A stretch of DNA of 64,000 nucleotides from a virus (lineage: Duplodnaviria > Caudoviricetes), in IMG/VR virus record IMGVR_UViG_3300036832_000493, positions 2,085 to 66,084 of that record, one strand, 5' to 3'. The translations under genes and the position numbers were made by a program. The notes under the pieces were generated by a model, which ran no database searches, had not been told where the DNA came from, and saw nothing but the letters and a program-made list of their open reading frames with translations. Each line of letters starts with the position of its first letter. Position 1 is the stretch's first letter. Shown piece by piece: positions 2,981-45,110 of this stretch.

Positions 2981-3700
2981 ATGACCAAAGCTCAAGAACG
3001 CGCCGCCGAAGTCCTCGCCAACCGGAAGGCGGCCTACCTCAAGAAAGTCCACAGCCTGCTCGGCCACCTCGCTCGCAACGCCGTGCTCAAGGAAGCCGAT
3101 CTCGCCTTTCGCGATGGCCGCAGCGCCGACGACTTCGCCGCCGAGGTCGCCGCGCGTGAGCCTGTCGGCAAGGCCGTCCACGCGCTCAAGGCCGATGCCG
3201 TCGCCAGTGCCGAACTCGATGCCCGCGACGTCGTCGAGCGCGTCCGCACCGATCTCGAAGCGCACGGCTGGGACGTCCACGCCGTCGCGCCCTATCCGTC
3301 GAACCGGGTGCTCTACGACCGCGCCGCCTACGCCCGCGCCAAGGCCAAGTACGGCCTGTACAACCGCCTGATCATGGACGACCCCAAGTTCGGTTATCAA
3401 GGCAGCCGTAGCGGCGACCCCCGCATCGTCGTCATCAACCCCACCTCTGCCGAGCGCTTCGTCAACGAGGCGCGCGAGATGGCCGCCGCCAACTACGACG
3501 CCTTCATCGTCAAGCTCGTCGGCAAGACCGGCAAGGACGTCGTCTCGGCCAAGCTCGACGGCAACCACGTCTGGGGGCACTCGACCCTGATCATCATCCG
3601 CAAGGACGGTCGCACCGAGCGCTGGTTCACCCAGCAGATCGTCAACTACTCGGGGCTCGGCACGCCCTACAACCAGTGGCCGACACGTTTGCTCAAGTAA
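2981..3700 (+). CDS. hypothetical protein (paralogue of 14578-15249)
   Basis: Directly behind promoter and GGAG RBS; 239 aa. Confidence 0.85.
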   Translation: MTKAQERAAEVLANRKAAYLKKVHSLLGHLARNAVLKEADLAFRDGRSADDFAAEVAAREPVGKAVHALKADAVASAELDARDVVERVRTDLEAHGWDVHAVAPYPSNRVLYDRAAYARAKAKYGLYNRLIMDDPKFGYQGSRSGDPRIVVINPTSAERFVNEAREMAAANYDAFIVKLVGKTGKDVVSAKLDGNHVWGHSTLIIIRKDGRTERWFTQQIVNYSGLGTPYNQWPTRLLK

Positions 3701-3757: not shown

Positions 3758-3949
3758 ATGAAGTCCGTGAACGCCCGCGCCATCGCCACGCGCCTCGCTC
3801 TGAAGGAGGAAGCCGCCTTCCTGCTCGAACAGAACAACTTCGTCGCTCATCAGGCCATCATGGAATACCTCGGTGCCGCCGACGACGACAGCCTCGTGCA
3901 TTTCCACAGCCTGATCATGAACTACACCCTGCTCCGGGGTGACGACTGA
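3758..3949 (+). CDS. hypothetical protein
   Basis: AAGGAG RBS; MKSVNARAI... Confidence 0.7.
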   Translation: MKSVNARAIATRLALKEEAAFLLEQNNFVAHQAIMEYLGAADDDSLVHFHSLIMNYTLLRGDD

Positions 3950-4673: not shown

Positions 4674-5008
4674 GCGGCGAGGCCGCACGCGACCGGGGCG
4701 TCGCCCGGGTGCTGAACAAGGAAAGCGCGCTCTGGCATGCCAACTACGTCCGGTTCTGCGCCGAGTGGTTCTGGGCGCTGCCGCCGGGCGCGACCTTCAA
4801 GGGCGAGGAACTGCGGCTCAACGCGCTCAGGCGCGGCCTGCCCGAGCCGCACAACCCCAACGTCTGGGGTGCGGCCTCGCTGGGCTACCTGAAGGCCCTG
4901 TTCACCTGCGGCATGGCCGAGACCGTCGGCACGTCCAAGGCGCTGTCGGCCAAGTCTCACGCTCATCAATACCGCATCTATCGCAAGCTCGGGAAAGGGG
5001 ACGCTTGA
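4670..5008 (+). CDS. hypothetical protein
   Basis: ATGA overlap; 112 aa. Confidence 0.7.
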   Translation: MSGEAARDRGVARVLNKESALWHANYVRFCAEWFWALPPGATFKGEELRLNALRRGLPEPHNPNVWGAASLGYLKALFTCGMAETVGTSKALSAKSHAHQYRIYRKLGKGDA

Positions 5009-5029
5009 CCGCCTAAAGTGATTGCTTCA
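5005..5029 (+). promoter_or_regulatory. promoter/operator variant upstream of the RAMP-like gene
   Basis: TTGACcgcctaAAGTgattGCTTca: same geometry as consensus with one mismatch in the palindrome. Confidence 0.7.
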
Positions 5030-5059
5030 AGAACACCGTACTCAACCAAGGAACAGATC

Positions 5060-5665
5060 ATGGCACAGAACCCCGCTGTCGGCGGCGACCAGCTTTCGAC
5101 CCTTAACATCCGCCTCGACGGCGCGTCACCTTTGCTGATGCACAGCACCACCGGCATGGACCCCACCAACCCGCTGGCCCGCGAGATCAGGGCCCTGACC
5201 AGCAAGCAATCCAAGCAGAAGACCGACGAGGACGGCATCGAAATCCAGCGGATGGAGTTCATTCTCGGCCTCTACCGCAACGCCGAGGGCCCGGTCATCA
5301 AGAGTGACATGCTGCTCGCGGCGATCCGCGACGGAGCCAAGCAGATGCGGCAGGGCCGCGAGATCACGCGCTCGGTGTTCTGTTTCGATCTCGACCTGCC
5401 GCTGATCTACGACGGCCCCAAGACCTCCGAGGGCCTGTGGAAGGACAAGCGCTTTGTCGACGCCCGTTCGGTCAAGCTCAAGGCCGCGCGCGTCCTGCGC
5501 ACGCGCCCGATCTTCACCGACTGGGCGCTGGAGGCGGAACTCCATTTCGACGCCGACTACCTCAACCGCGACGACCTGTGCCGCGCGATCAGGGTGGCGG
5601 GAAGCCGCGTCGGCATCGGTGACTACCGCCCGATCTTCGGGAGGTTCGATGTTGCTTTCCTCTGA
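5060..5665 (+). CDS. stand-alone RAMP/Cas7-like RNA-binding protein (Vipr-like candidate effector)
   Basis: AAGGA RBS; 201 aa with RAMP hallmarks: N-terminal strand LNIRLDGASPLLMH, PVIKSDMLLAAIRDGA helix (cf. IPGSSLKGALR) and C-terminal Gly-rich loop AGSRVGIGDYRPIFGRFDV. Confidence 0.75.
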   Translation: MAQNPAVGGDQLSTLNIRLDGASPLLMHSTTGMDPTNPLAREIRALTSKQSKQKTDEDGIEIQRMEFILGLYRNAEGPVIKSDMLLAAIRDGAKQMRQGREITRSVFCFDLDLPLIYDGPKTSEGLWKDKRFVDARSVKLKAARVLRTRPIFTDWALEAELHFDADYLNRDDLCRAIRVAGSRVGIGDYRPIFGRFDVAFL

Positions 5666-6122
5666 CTTCGACGCGGTGAAGGCGGCTGCGGAGGTAGCCG
5701 CCCTCATCTCCAGCGGCGGCATGGTGCTGTCCGAGCGCGCCCGCTTCCGCATCCTTGGCATCATCCACCCGGATGACCTGAACGAACCGTTCGACCGCGC
5801 CGCGTACGATGAACTGCGGATGGCCGCTGTCGAACGCTGGCGGCTGGTTCACGACATCTGCCGCCGCACTTACAACTTCGGCTTCGCGCGCGGTGCCAAC
5901 CGGGGGCACATGCGCCTTCCCGTCGAGGAGGACGTCGAATACAGCTTACGCCGCAGACTGGGTGAGGCGCGCACCGCCTTGGACCGTGCGCGGTTCGAAG
6001 TAGATCACAGCGACGTCGAGAGCATGAGCGACGTTGAACGCGCCGAGCGCGCTAATGCGCTGGTGCGGCTCACCAACTACCGGGCGGCCCTCGATGGACG
6101 ACGCAGGCGGCTCTGGGCATAA
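5649..6122 (+). CDS. unknown 157-aa accessory protein between the RAMP-like gene and the pentamer array
   Basis: GGAGG RBS and ATG inside the 3' end of the upstream gene; MLLSSDFDAV...RRRRLWA; stop is 3 nt before the array. Confidence 0.7.
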   Translation: MLLSSDFDAVKAAAEVAALISSGGMVLSERARFRILGIIHPDDLNEPFDRAAYDELRMAAVERWRLVHDICRRTYNFGFARGANRGHMRLPVEEDVEYSLRRRLGEARTALDRARFEVDHSDVESMSDVERAERANALVRLTNYRAALDGRRRRLWA

Positions 6123-6125
6123 CAG

Positions 6126-6757
6126 GGCATGGCGCGGCATCGGCGCGGCAGGGCTAGGCTCGGCATGGCCCGATCCGGCGGGGCTGGGTTCGGCAGGGCG
6201 GGGCATGGCAGGATACGGCATGGCAAGGCAAGGAGCAGGGGGCTGCGAAATTCCAAGGCGCGGCTCGGCGTGGCTGGGCGGGGCTGGGCGGGGTGTGGCA
6301 CGGTTAGGCGGGGTTCGGCCAGACAAGGCAAGGCAAGGAACGGGGGATGCGAAATTCCAAGGCGCGGCTGGGTCTGGCTCGGCGCGGTTTGGCGTGGCAG
6401 GGCGCGGCATGACCCGGCTTGGCACGGCATGGTACGGCATGGCAGGGAACGGGGGCTACGAAATTCCGAGGCGTGGCTGGGTCAGGCGGGGCGAGGCGCG
6501 GCAGGGCAAGGCAGGATGGGGCAGGGCAAGGGACAGGGGCTACGAAATTCCGAGACGCGGCTCGGCGCGGCTGGGTCTGGCTGGGCATGACAGGGCAGGG
6601 TCAGGCGTGGCGGGGCGCGGCTTGGTCTTGGTGAGGCAGGGTTCGGCCCGGCAGGACGAGGCAAGGAACGGGGGCGTGAGTTTCCAAGGCGTGGTTTGGC
6701 GGGGCTCGGCATGGCGGGGTTTGGCAGGGCGCGGCACGGCACGGCAAGGCATGGCAA
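6126..6757 (+). ncRNA. GGY-NN pentamer guide-like array: six tracts separated by five conserved linkers
   Basis: Tracts 6126-6231 (21 pentamers), 6257-6336 (16), 6361-6445 (17), 6470-6529 (12), 6554-6664 (22), 6688-6757 (14). Linkers 6232-6256, 6337-6360, 6446-6469, 6530-6553, 6665-6687 (consensus GGAACGGGGGCTrCGAAATTCCrA). The repeat structure is directly visible; RNA function is inferred. Confidence 0.8.
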
Positions 6758-6776
6758 GGAAAATGGCTAAAGGGGG

Positions 6777-6821
6777 TTGACGACTGCAAGCACCCGCTTG
6801 TAAGACCCCCTCGTCAGCAAC
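6777..6821 (+). promoter_or_regulatory. early promoter/operator copy
   Basis: TTGACgactgcAAGCacccGCTTgt ... GTCAGCAAC. Confidence 0.8.
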
Positions 6822-6840
6822 TCTCAAGGACACCTCGACC

Positions 6841-7182
6841 ATGTCATACTGCCCGCACACCAACACCGACGTCCGCAACCGCTTCCTCGGCGGCGGCGAG
6901 CCCCTCCCGCTCCTGCTCGGCCAGTTCTGCAACTACCACGCCGCAGGCGTGTTCGAGTACTCCGAGCGGCTGCCGGGCCAGTTCCCCGAGGACTTCTGCC
7001 CCGACTACCAGCACGTCATCTACCTGATCGACGGCAACGTCCGCCTCGCCCGTGTGCTCCAGACCGTCGCCCACGTCGTCATCGACGAGAACGACCACGG
7101 CGCCGTCGTCGAGCGCTGGAAGCTGCGCGGCCACCGCCACTACCCCACGGACTGGGTCTACGAGCCGCTCGTGACAGCGTAA
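6841..7182 (+). CDS. hypothetical phage protein
   Basis: Promoter plus AAGGA RBS; 113 aa. Confidence 0.8.
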   Translation: MSYCPHTNTDVRNRFLGGGEPLPLLLGQFCNYHAAGVFEYSERLPGQFPEDFCPDYQHVIYLIDGNVRLARVLQTVAHVVIDENDHGAVVERWKLRGHRHYPTDWVYEPLVTA

Positions 7183-7410
7183 GCTGTCACATCTCTGCCA
7201 CCGAGACAGAAAAACCGGCGGGCGGGGATTGACCCCGACCACAACAAAGCGCTTTATGCGCATCCGGTGCGGGGCAAGCCGCTTTGCGGCTGATCCTCCT
7301 CCTGACGTCGCAGATTTTCTTGTTCTGTAAGGAAGCTGAAAAGCCCCCGGCGGGCGGGGTTCGTGGGCCCGTCAGTCTTGTCCATCGGTCAGGAATGTAA
7401 GGAACACGCA

Positions 7411-8103
7411 ATGAAGAAGCTTGCTCTAGCAACGGCACTTTGCCTCTTTTCAACGCCTGCAATGGCCGCTGTTCTTATCTGTCAGAGCCCGAACTGCGCG
7501 CCGGGGCCAGAGACGAACATCCTCGTCGATCACCAGCCTTCGGCGAACCTCATCATCGGACGCGCCGATACCAACGGTGGTATCCCCGCTGTGGCCTTCA
7601 CCTCTCCAATCGGCGAGTCCCTTATCGGCAACGCCAACGGGCAGGCCGACGTCTCGGCGGCGGACGGCGCGCTCAACGCGCTGACTTTCACCGTGCAGTC
7701 GGGCTTCACGTTCGGCGATGCCCTGTTCAACCTGTTCCCGCTACCGGGCAATCAAGCTAACGAGGCGATGTTCGCCGACATCAGCTACTTCGTGAACAAC
7801 ATCCTGCACACCGACACGATTGGCATCAACACCAACGGGCAGAACGACACGGGCATCTACGGCACGGCTGGTGAGCGCTTCACCTCGGTCACCTTCCGGG
7901 CGAACCCGCTGACCACGGGCATTCAAGACCTCCGCCAACTGCGCCTGTCCGACATCCAGCAGACGACGCCCCCGCCCCCGCCGCCGCCTCCAGCGGTGCC
8001 CGAACCGGCGGTCTGGCTGACCATGCTGCTCGGCTTCGGCATGATCGGCATGGGGCTGCGCAAGAACCAGTCGACGCCGTCGCGCGTGCGGCTGGCCTAC
8101 TAA
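7411..8103 (+). CDS. PEP-CTERM (PEPxxW-type) exported surface protein
   Basis: Signal peptide MKKLALATALCLFSTPAMA; poly-Pro linker; C-terminal VPEPAVWLTMLLGFGMIGMGLRK (PEP, TM helix, basic tail). Confidence 0.9.
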   Translation: MKKLALATALCLFSTPAMAAVLICQSPNCAPGPETNILVDHQPSANLIIGRADTNGGIPAVAFTSPIGESLIGNANGQADVSAADGALNALTFTVQSGFTFGDALFNLFPLPGNQANEAMFADISYFVNNILHTDTIGINTNGQNDTGIYGTAGERFTSVTFRANPLTTGIQDLRQLRLSDIQQTTPPPPPPPPAVPEPAVWLTMLLGFGMIGMGLRKNQSTPSRVRLAY

Positions 8104-12889: not shown

Positions 12890-12933
12890 TTGACAGCCAC
12901 AAGCACATGCTTTAAGAGAGACGGGTCAGCAAC
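12890..12933 (+). promoter_or_regulatory. early promoter/operator copy
   Basis: TTGACagccacAAGCacatGCTTta ... GTCAGCAAC. Confidence 0.85.
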
Positions 12934-14391: not shown

Positions 14392-14564
14392 CCCTGACGA
14401 TGGTCATCCTGCTGCTGGCCGTCCTGCTCATGACGCTCGGCATAGCGCTGGTCATCAGGGGCCTGCGCGGTGGCGTCGAGCGCCTGCCGATGTGCCTGTG
14501 GGGCCTCGCGCTCGCGGCAGCGGCAGCTGTCCTGTTCGGCGTCGCCATCGGGTCCGTACACTGA
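14388..14564 (+). CDS. small two-TM membrane protein
   Basis: ATGA overlap; MTLTMVILLLAVLL... Confidence 0.6.
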   Translation: MTLTMVILLLAVLLMTLGIALVIRGLRGGVERLPMCLWGLALAAAAAVLFGVAIGSVH

Positions 14565-14577
14565 GGAAACCCAACCC

Positions 14578-15249
14578 ATGACCCCTGCCGAGATCGTCAA
14601 GGACAACCACCGCCGCGCCTACCTCGACGCCTGCCGCGAGGCGCTCGCGCCCATCGACTACGATCGCCCGGCGGCCAAGCAGGCCTTCGAGGACGGCGTG
14701 CGCCGCGACGACTACGTCGTCAGCGTGGCCTTGTGTCAGCCGGTCGGCGAGGCCTTCTTGGCGACGCGCGAGCGCACCACGAAGTGGGCCACGAAGTTCG
14801 TCGGCGCGTGGGCCAACGCCATCTTCAACGACCTGCGCGTCGCGGACTGGGACGTCGCGAAGGCTGCGCCGTTCCCTTTGTTCGATGACCGTCTCCGCCG
14901 CAGCAAGCGCGCCCGCTACGACGCCTTCCGGCTGTTCACGCGGCCCCACGAAGCGCGCGGCGGCAGCTATGTCGAGCCCGACACCGAGGCGCTCGCCTCC
15001 TACATGGGGCAGGCCGTCCTCACCATCGAGATGCAGTTCGACCTGTTCATCGTGCAAACGGTCGCCACCATCGGCCTCGATGTCGTGTCGGCGCAGGTCC
15101 ACGACGTTGGCGTGACCGGCGCGCTGCTGCACCTGATCGTCGAGCGCCCGTCGGGCGTAGCCACGCGCTGGGAAATCGAGCGCGACGCCACCCTCTCGCC
15201 GCTCGGCAATCCCAAGGTCACTTGGACGCTGTCCGAGCCCACGGACTAA
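14578..15249 (+). CDS. hypothetical protein (paralogue of 2981-3700)
   Basis: GAGGA RBS; shares colinear motifs with 2981-3700. Confidence 0.75.
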   Translation: MTPAEIVKDNHRRAYLDACREALAPIDYDRPAAKQAFEDGVRRDDYVVSVALCQPVGEAFLATRERTTKWATKFVGAWANAIFNDLRVADWDVAKAAPFPLFDDRLRRSKRARYDAFRLFTRPHEARGGSYVEPDTEALASYMGQAVLTIEMQFDLFIVQTVATIGLDVVSAQVHDVGVTGALLHLIVERPSGVATRWEIERDATLSPLGNPKVTWTLSEPTD

Positions 15250-44642: not shown

Positions 44643-45110
44643 CTACTTCTTGGGGCCCGCCGATGGCGGCAGACCCTGATCGGGACGCGCAGGCGCCGGA
44701 GGCAGGCCCTGATCAGGGCGACCCGGCGACGGAGGCAGGCCCTGATCGGGATGCCCGGGCACAGGCGGGAGGCCCTGATCAGGATATTCGGGTGCACCGC
44801 CCCAGATACCCGGAGGCACGCCGGGCAGCGTGTTATCGGGCGCACCGGGGCAACCGGGCCAGCTACCGATGGGCAGCGAAGGCAGGCTGTTGTCGATGCC
44901 GGGGATATCACCCGGCAGCGTCTGATCAGGCTCCCCCGGCACACCGACGTCGGGCGCACCCGGCAGACCGTTGTCGACGCCTTCGTCACCGACCTCGATG
45001 ATGATCAGTTCGCGGTAAATATGCTCATAGGCCACGGCGGGCGGAACGCCCTTGGGCTGCTGGAGCTTGACCCGACGAACCGACGAACCAAGCGGAACAC
45101 GGACTGCCAT
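44643..45110 (-). CDS. Pro-rich protein with tandem PD(Q/N)xLP repeats
   Basis: AAGGAG RBS; VDNGLP, PDQTLP, IDNSLP, PDNTLP, and four copies of PDQGLPP. Confidence 0.7.
   Translation of the reverse strand: MAVRVPLGSSVRRVKLQQPKGVPPAVAYEHIYRELIIIEVGDEGVDNGLPGAPDVGVPGEPDQTLPGDIPGIDNSLPSLPIGSWPGCPGAPDNTLPGVPPGIWGGAPEYPDQGLPPVPGHPDQGLPPSPGRPDQGLPPAPARPDQGLPPSAGPKK

Follow-up and report, generated by a model that had tools for sequence, protein, structure and literature searches.

Why would a phage genome carry a stand-alone gene for a Cas7-like protein in front of several hundred nucleotides of five-base repeats? The locus that raises this question lies in the IMG/VR virus record IMGVR_UViG_3300036832_000493, a single contig of 66,084 bp with 66.5% G+C. 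The window analyzed here comprises 64,000 nucleotides, bases 2085 to 66084 of that record, and positions refer to this window unless stated otherwise. A preliminary description had proposed a phage RNA-guided system made up of a 201-amino-acid RAMP/Cas7-like protein, a coupled gene of 157 amino acids and a 632-nucleotide stretch of period 5, and all three elements were found where it had placed them. From the analysis below we conclude with high confidence that the locus is a complete VIPR (Viral Interference Programmable Repeat) system in a high-GC soil phage of 66 kb. The preliminary description had itself pointed to VIPR-type viral systems and cautioned against claiming novelty before the literature was consulted. 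This caution was justified, and the locus is not novel as a kind, because VIPR systems have already been presented in preprints of 2026.

In those preprints, a VIPR system is defined by a minimal RAMP protein (Vipr), usually one vap gene, vrRNAs and a viral home (10.64898/2026.04.26.720920 and companions). The vrRNAs are described as 9 to 16 YNNGG repeats followed by an invariable tail (10.64898/2026.04.26.720920). One protomer is reported per repeat, with GGY sequestered, NN presented and the target read as xNN (10.64898/2026.04.26.720920, 10.64898/2026.04.26.720927); on double-stranded DNA one base is skipped for every unit read, transcription is silenced by binding, and satellites, prophages and other VIPR systems serve as natural targets (10.64898/2026.04.26.720920 and companions). 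VIPR arrays were also recovered in a fourth preprint (10.64898/2026.10.21.760802). Every feature of this definition that can be judged at the sequence level appears to be present at the soil phage locus.

The GGY-NN array

The period-5 stretch occupies positions 6126 to 6757, and a greedy parse divides it into 102 pentamers. As had been described, the first three bases are nearly fixed and the last two vary freely: G stands at position 1 in all 102 units and at position 2 in 94, the other 8 having A, and position 3 is always a pyrimidine (C in 84, T in 18); of the 16 possible dinucleotides, all but CG occur at the NN positions. When the whole 66,084-bp genome was scanned for runs of at least 5 G[GA][CT]NN units, seven were found, all on the plus strand and within window positions 6142 to 6757, with none on the minus strand; 50 mononucleotide shuffles of the genome contained 0.42 runs on average and never more than 3. 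The strand of the array is that of vipr, as is expected of a VIPR array, for which at least 4 tandem YNNGG units on the same strand are required.

The preliminary description had treated the array as a single stretch. The region of period 5 is real, but it actually consists of six tracts (3+18, 16, 17, 12, 15+7 and 14 units) that are separated by a conserved element of about 24 nucleotides. This element follows five of the six tracts as a tail of 23 to 25 nucleotides with the consensus GGAACGGGGGCTGCGAAATTCCAA and a mean column identity of 87%, flanks included, and the sixth tract is followed by a degenerate copy. An exact scan of IMG/VR viral contigs for the tail pattern returned no other copy, and Rfam gave just a chance-level match to a long noncoding RNA (E 0.59) for positions 4900 to 7000.

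The last units before the tail were seen to be GGYAA-GGYAA, or the corresponding AA/AT pair, at 6222-6231, 6327-6336 and 6748-6757. Such ends also occur in Felixounavirus vrRNAs (locus L033, at about 3670-3690 and 3800-3820). Since these ends are common to the phage and to Felixounavirus vrRNAs, the 3'-most NN pairs may belong to the constant region rather than to the guide.

In the soil metagenomes X1 to X3, many short contigs fit window positions 6149 to 6924 in part, at a summed depth of about 1.5 to 5 times that of the flanks. The loose ends of these contigs are themselves GGYNN-like, which suggests that the same soils hold many further VIPR arrays. Run X3 also contains a diverged relative of the vipr-vap genes. 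The contig of a relative carries 16 differences over array positions 6256 to 6338, a count taken over the segment and not resolved by unit.

The Vipr protein

The stand-alone RAMP/Cas7-like protein that had been proposed was supported by both homology and predicted structure. Its sequence matched PDB entry 36pp_D, named 'SUSP1 Vipr protein', over residues 14 to 199 of 201 (E 3.7e-35), and phrog_4652, a PHROG of unassigned function (E 1.3e-50); no Pfam family was found for it. Salmonella phage Mushroom, which like SUSP1 belongs to the Felixounaviruses, has a Vipr with 37% identity to it by BLASTP (E 2e-44), and identities to SUSP1-like Vipr ranged from 36 to 37% across comparisons.

The residues with which SUSP1 Vipr grips each GGY and the skipped target base are named in 10.64898/2026.04.26.720927, and their counterparts in the soil phage protein were read from both the 36pp_D and the Mushroom alignments. 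With the SUSP1 residue in parentheses, these are H28 (H17), R44 (K33), D83 (E71), M84 (M72), R149 (R138), D188 (D177), Y189 (W178) and R190 (R179). Among the exchanges, Y189 retains an aromatic and D83 an acidic side chain. R149 never varies across a family alignment of 100 sequences, in which H28, D188 and R190 are conserved at 90% or more; D188 and R190 lie in the G-loop, G185-I-G-D-Y-R-P191.

Structure prediction followed by Foldseek had been suggested as a check on positions 5060 to 5665, and it returned Csm3/Cas7 RAMP matches. An AlphaFold2 model made with the family alignment reached a predicted local distance difference test score (pLDDT) of 96 and a predicted template modeling (TM) score of 0.88, compared with a pLDDT of only 36 from the single sequence. 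Foldseek against PDB gave 56 matches at E <= 1e-3, led by Csm3 (E 2.5e-5, probability 1.00); the matches listed are Csm3, Cmr, type VII Cas7 and Cas6 chains. In a VIA-align comparison with 48,161 chains, the first 19 rows were all chains of CRISPR effector complexes, the best being Csm3 chain 9g9a_D (Z 10.2, root mean square deviation 3.4 over 145 residues). Judged by this model, the phage Vipr is a minimal RAMP with a predicted Cas7/Csm3-like fold.

Vipr relatives and their arrays

A word-indexed search with Vipr found 10 relatives besides the query, the best of them 54% identical. A profile search of 1.84 billion representatives (clusters at 50% identity) yielded 7,362 at E <= 1e-3 and 1,563 at E <= 1e-30. 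In the discovery paper, 2,664 Vipr sequences were gathered from NCBI NR, and 664 representative loci are listed (10.64898/2026.04.26.720920). The family is thus very large in metagenomes, with 7,362 representative clusters against 2,664 published sequences. Among phages, tblastn returned 130 records, for the most part from Felixounaviruses, along with Gordonia phage Trine and Mycobacterium phage LittleE.

The presence of arrays at related genes, another check that had been proposed, was assessed in 32 loci collected by Vipr similarity. Eight of these came from genomes, Bradyrhizobium among them, and the other 24 from IMG/VR. Runs of at least 5 GGYNN units were sought within 1 kb upstream or 1.5 kb downstream of vipr, and same-strand runs were found beside the gene in 28 of the 32 loci, with none elsewhere in the loci and none on the opposite strand. 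Near-duplicates (L012-L015, L009-L011, L018/L019 and L027/L028) make the number of independent loci lower than 32. The four loci lacking runs are L002, L007, L021 and L030; L007 is a partial protein match, and the match in L030 lies at a contig end. Tail sequences vary between clades of vipr loci.

The vap-like gene

By its position, the 157-amino-acid protein is a Vap. It matched no Pfam or PHROG family, and phmmer against the open reading frames (ORFs) near 34 vipr loci gave nothing below E 0.08. When it was compared by BLASTP with the protein that a Felixounavirus encodes at the vap1 position, the C-terminal 56 residues alone aligned, end to end, at E 0.029. A Vap1 profile was built from five mutually related proteins that follow vipr in other loci; it matched the vap-like protein at E 4.4e-5 as a single comparison and, when run on 628 six-frame ORFs of the genome, ranked the vap-like frame first at E 0.075, the next frame having E 1.9. 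The protein is possibly a distant Vap1.

An ESM Atlas model of the protein (pLDDT 0.77) resembled three unnamed, mostly viral clusters at TM scores of 0.69 to 0.81, the largest of which has 2,425 members, and winged-helix families scored below TM 0.5. Our best guess is that the protein is a putative DNA-binding helper, because type II Vaps are described as predicted DNA binders in 10.64898/2026.04.26.720920.

Layout of the locus

Both ORFs are intact (Table 1). vipr begins with ATG at 5060 and stops at 5663-5665, and the vap-like ORF, with ATG at 5649, a stop at 6120-6122 and GGAGG just 5' of its start, overlaps vipr by 17 nucleotides. Promoters had been proposed at 5005 and 6777. The two sites do share a motif, TTGAC-N14-GCTTNNAR, but a sigma-70 consensus scan matched neither of them. 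The motif has three matches in the window (5005, 6777 and 12890), all on the plus strand, against 0.03 expected, a statistic that is partly circular because the motif was defined after the sites had been seen. We take it to resemble alphaproteobacterial promoters, and the shared motif probably marks early promoters of the phage. No terminator-like site was found on the plus strand between the 5005 and 6777 motifs; this, together with the flanking motifs, fits a single transcription unit.

Two side observations concern the motif. The third copy spans 12890-12916 on the plus strand, and a similar site lies in the first 2 kb of the genome (at about 1850-1900 of the record), where it is followed by CGTCAGCA, as is the motif at 6777.

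Table 1. Elements of the soil phage VIPR locus, in window positions
Feature	Position	Strand	Evidence or remark
Promoter-like motif TTGAC-N14-GCTTNNAR	5005..5031	+	29 nt 5' of the vipr start codon
vipr, 201 aa, predicted minimal Cas7-like RAMP	5060..5665	+	PDB 36pp_D, phrog_4652, Felixounavirus BLASTP, AlphaFold2 model with Csm3/Cas7 fold matches
vap-like accessory gene, 157 aa, sequence orphan	5649..6122	+	vap1 position and similar size (SUSP1-type phages)
vrRNA 1: 3 + 18 GGYNN units, 1-nt insertion at 6141, tail 6232-6256	6126..6256	+	
vrRNA 2: 16 units, tail 6337-6360	6257..6360	+	
vrRNA 3: 17 units, tail 6446-6469	6361..6469	+	
vrRNA 4: 12 units, tail 6530-6553	6470..6553	+	
vrRNA 5: 15 + 7 units, 1-nt insertion at 6629, variant tail 6665-6687	6554..6687	+	
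vrRNA 6: 14 units, degenerate terminal tail 6758-6776 without the CGAAATTCC half	6688..6776	+	
Next promoter-like motif, closing the locus	6777..6803	+	next gene start 6841

Targets of the guides

The guides of the six tracts (vr1 to vr6) were compared with the phage genome under the rule of one skipped nucleotide per unit, and matches were judged by the published self/target threshold of 80% NN identity (10.64898/2026.04.26.720920). No guide reached 80% in its own genome. The best self matches of the six guides, in NN bases, were 21/36, 19/32, 22/34, 18/24, 19/30 and 18/28, with 11/14 for the 7-unit fragment; the maxima thus were 22/34 (65%) for tracts of at least 15 units, 75% for the 12-unit tract and 79% for the 7-unit fragment. 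Published VIPR systems are likewise described as free of self-targeting (same source).

External scans took exact or near-exact cores, so that targets with scattered mismatches may escape them, and cellular genomes were searched with vr2 alone. Among viral contigs, exact xNN cores of vr1 and vr2 (10 units each) and of vr4 (9 units) had no match. Cores of 8 units gave 18 loci for vr3 (best 22/34), 7 for vr6 (best 21/28) and 7 for vr5 (best 21/30), and none of these 32 matches extends past the core. In the 34 fetched loci, the best guide matches equalled those of shuffled-unit controls. Eleven units of vr2, with up to 3 mismatches allowed, had no match in 405 genomes (4 with relatives and 401 of the class of genome G001), compared with 3 for the reversed control.

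In metagenome contigs, the 10-unit core of vr2 had one exact match, in one sequence present in two assemblies (L060 and L061). The match spans 873-901 of L060 on the minus strand, 4 nucleotides upstream of the start of a 138-amino-acid ORF (905-1321), on a contig of 69% GC with housekeeping-looking ORFs. The six flanking vr2 units differ, which leaves 22/32 overall, below 80%, and the match is probably due to chance.

Proposed mechanism and alternative explanations

As in the homologous SUSP1 system, each pentamer would be bound by a single Vipr protomer, which would bury GGY by means of H28, R149 and the G-loop residues D188-Y189-R190 and present the NN pair. The preliminary description had suggested one protomer per GGY, with the NN bases displayed as a non-contiguous code, and the suggestion agrees with the mechanism set out in 10.64898/2026.04.26.720920 and 10.64898/2026.04.26.720927. 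RNA binding, filament formation, the skip rule and silencing are carried over from those papers and would apply to the present locus by analogy. The promoter-like site at 5005 probably drives vipr, the translationally coupled vap-like gene and the head-to-tail array of six vrRNAs, and cleavage of the long transcript would yield units, each of 12 to 22 GGY-NN pentamers with a tail of about 24 nucleotides. Because the vrRNAs abut head to tail, a single precursor would have to be cut at or near each tail. The likeliest target would be a competing phage, satellite or prophage in the same host.

A number of observations weigh against the assignment to a complete VIPR system. The scans of viral contigs, metagenome contigs, fetched loci and the 405 genomes gave no convincing natural target for any of the six guides. 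The single-nucleotide insertions at 6141 and 6629 break the 5-nucleotide register of tracts 1 and 5, and several tracts (17, 18(+3) and 22 units) are longer than the published 9 to 16 units. A tail hairpin or pseudoknot is conserved in the SUSP1 clade, according to the VIPR preprints; the tails of the soil phage fold no better than shuffles (z -0.47 to +1.39), and their only consistent helix, of 4 bp (GGRR/UUCC), pairs in 20 of 20 cells with two one-sided changes and no compensatory change. For the vap-like protein, an index of 5.8 billion proteins held no homologue, tblastn against phages gave 7 weak Pseudomonas matches (E >= 0.2), none beside vipr, and hhalign linked the protein to Vap1 only weakly, with a probability of 2.9%. 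Finally, the public sequencing runs found to contain the stretch are three soil metagenome DNA runs (X1 to X3) and no RNA run.

The target scans and the insertions could be taken as signs that the locus is a decaying or idle VIPR remnant, whose genes and arrays are inherited but unused, and the degenerate last tail would fit such an account as well. We nevertheless consider decay improbable, in view of the intact and coupled vipr and vap-like ORFs, the GGY-contact residues, all of which are kept or conservatively replaced in the alignments, and the retention of G1 and Y3 in every one of the 102 units. The blank result for targets says little, because the scans were much weaker than the nhmmer workflow of the published work. 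Interruptions by a single nucleotide, on either side of which the tract is in register, also occur in long GGYNN tracts of two unrelated relatives, L008 (at 4981) and L026 (at 2186). Since these relatives show the same kind of interruption, it may be a normal feature, and the insertions in the soil phage may be regular, for example as joined or staggered guides, rather than a mark of decay. A VIPR system whose guides regulate host chromosomal genes or the phage's own program, instead of competing mobile elements, is also unlikely, if by a small measure less so than decay. It would accord with the vr2 match upstream of the ORF in L060, the sole exact 10-unit match for any guide, and with vrRNAs that send Vipr to host genome sites, as reported in 10.64898/2026.10.15.759431. 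Against this stand the mismatched flanking units at L060, the absence of guide matches in the phage's own genome, and a rough estimate, not a computed one, that about one chance match to 20 specified bases is to be expected in the metagenome collection. That the pentamer stretch is protein coding, or a plain simple-sequence repeat unrelated to the genes upstream, we regard as scarcely credible. Mechanical ORFs of 248 and 153 amino acids do cross the array, but the repeat period, 5, is not divisible by 3, none of the ORFs over 6123 to 6840 passes the filter on G+C at third and second codon positions (GC3/GC2) that the genome's real genes pass, and the same arrays follow vipr homologues in 28 of the 32 loci, with unrelated flanks.

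Together, these data favor a complete VIPR system. What sets the locus apart is a compact head-to-tail array with its own tail, tracts beyond the published 9 to 16 units and an accessory protein without sequence relatives. One could go further and see in it an undescribed VIPR sub-architecture, with a single operon transcript, a new accessory family, a precursor cut at the 24-nucleotide tail by a host or Vipr-associated nuclease, long guides of up to 22 units, a 1-nucleotide shift that perhaps splices two guides, and targets in unsequenced mobile elements of soil; we offer this extended picture tentatively and hold it to be rather doubtful as a whole. The locus leaves the understanding of the VIPR mechanism unchanged. 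It adds a clean, complete example, found in a soil phage of high GC content that is remote from the enterobacterial and Pseudomonas models, and would be useful as a test case for the limits of guide length, the processing of head-to-tail vrRNAs and the diversity of accessory genes.

The phage genome

The locus has a viral home, with phage replication, structural and packaging genes on the same contig. A PHROG scan of 63 ORFs placed a primase-helicase, an exonuclease, a Gp2.5-like single-strand DNA-binding protein, a DNA polymerase and a helicase on the plus strand, and tail fibers, internal virion and ejection proteins, head proteins, the portal and the large terminase on the minus strand. The closest counterparts of the DNA polymerase are encoded by Caulobacter phages GB2A, RW, RLK and KcrB (49% identity); no close cultured phage relative was found, and a search for tRNA genes in the window returned none.

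Three further features of the window were observed. Two genes downstream of the VIPR locus, at 7363-8103 on the plus strand, a protein of 246 amino acids has a signal-like N terminus and carries a PEP-CTERM sorting motif at its C terminus (Pfam PF07589, E 6.6e-6; 26.4 bits, where the cutoff is 20.7), which may hint at an exosortase-bearing host. Two early genes on the plus strand (2981-3700 and 14470-15249) encode paralogues of phrog_4687, a PHROG of unassigned function (E 2e-50 and 1.1e-6). A tandem repeat of 33/66 nucleotides at 44656-44784 encodes a PDQGLPP-type peptide repeat in a minus-strand ORF (44643-45110) that adjoins the tail-fiber genes, and it looks ordinary.

Comparison with known systems

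The backbone proteins of class 1 CRISPR effectors (Cas7, Csm3 and Cmr4) share with the Vipr model the RAMP fold, an RRM core, a glycine-rich loop and a thumb, as well as the principle that each subunit covers a fixed length of RNA. Cas7 domains of gRAMP/Cas7-11 align to the model with Z of 9.5 to 9.8. In contrast, the period of Vipr would be 5 nucleotides with 2 guide bases per unit, compared with 6 nucleotides and 5 paired bases in CRISPR, and Cas7 proteins have 10 to 18% sequence identity to the soil phage Vipr. The preliminary description had also reported that canonical CRISPR repeats, cas1/cas2 and cas3/cas10 are missing. This agrees with the Tandem Repeats Finder output, which contains no CRISPR repeat-spacer array in the window, and with the PHROG scan, which assigned no Cas family to any of the 63 ORFs, a dedicated search with Cas hidden Markov models not having been run. 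Membership in class 1 CRISPR-Cas was rejected on these two results.

The nearest named relatives in the genomes scanned are loci of Bradyrhizobium and uncultured alphaproteobacteria, with Vipr identities of 35 to 41% (L001-L004) and 28% (L008). L008 resembles the soil phage locus in its compact array, its short constant elements between tracts and its 1-nucleotide interruption. Unlike the phage locus, these loci have other tails (in L008, GGATAC-TTTATC-GATTT), their array follows vipr directly with no vap-like gene between, and they lie within cellular contigs of 91 kb to 8.7 Mb.

Type II systems of SUSP1 and other Felixounaviruses are phage-borne, as is the soil phage locus, and their Vipr is homologous, with the GGY-contact residues kept in the soil phage protein. 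Both kinds of locus run from vipr through a small accessory gene to a downstream vrRNA array, and both kinds of vrRNA consist of GGY-NN units, ending in GGYAA-GGYAA, and a constant 3' tail. The soil phage differs from SUSP1 type II in having no vrRNA upstream of vipr, an unrelated tail sequence, tracts of 12 to 22 units against the published 9 to 16, GAY in 8 of its 102 units, a genome of 66.5% GC, and an accessory protein that is not detectably Vap1-like by BLASTP (E 0.029) and weakly so by profile. In Salmonella phage Mushroom, each tract comes after a longer stretch in which an AT-rich sequence recurs, whereas the vrRNAs of the soil phage abut, with tails of about 24 nucleotides between them. 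Overall, type II, the clade of SUSP1 and P. fulva, is the closest described form, because the order of vipr, small gene and array matches that of the Felixounavirus locus; the soil phage locus is most like type II by comparison with SUSP1-like Vipr, the only typed relative compared, at 36 to 37% identity.

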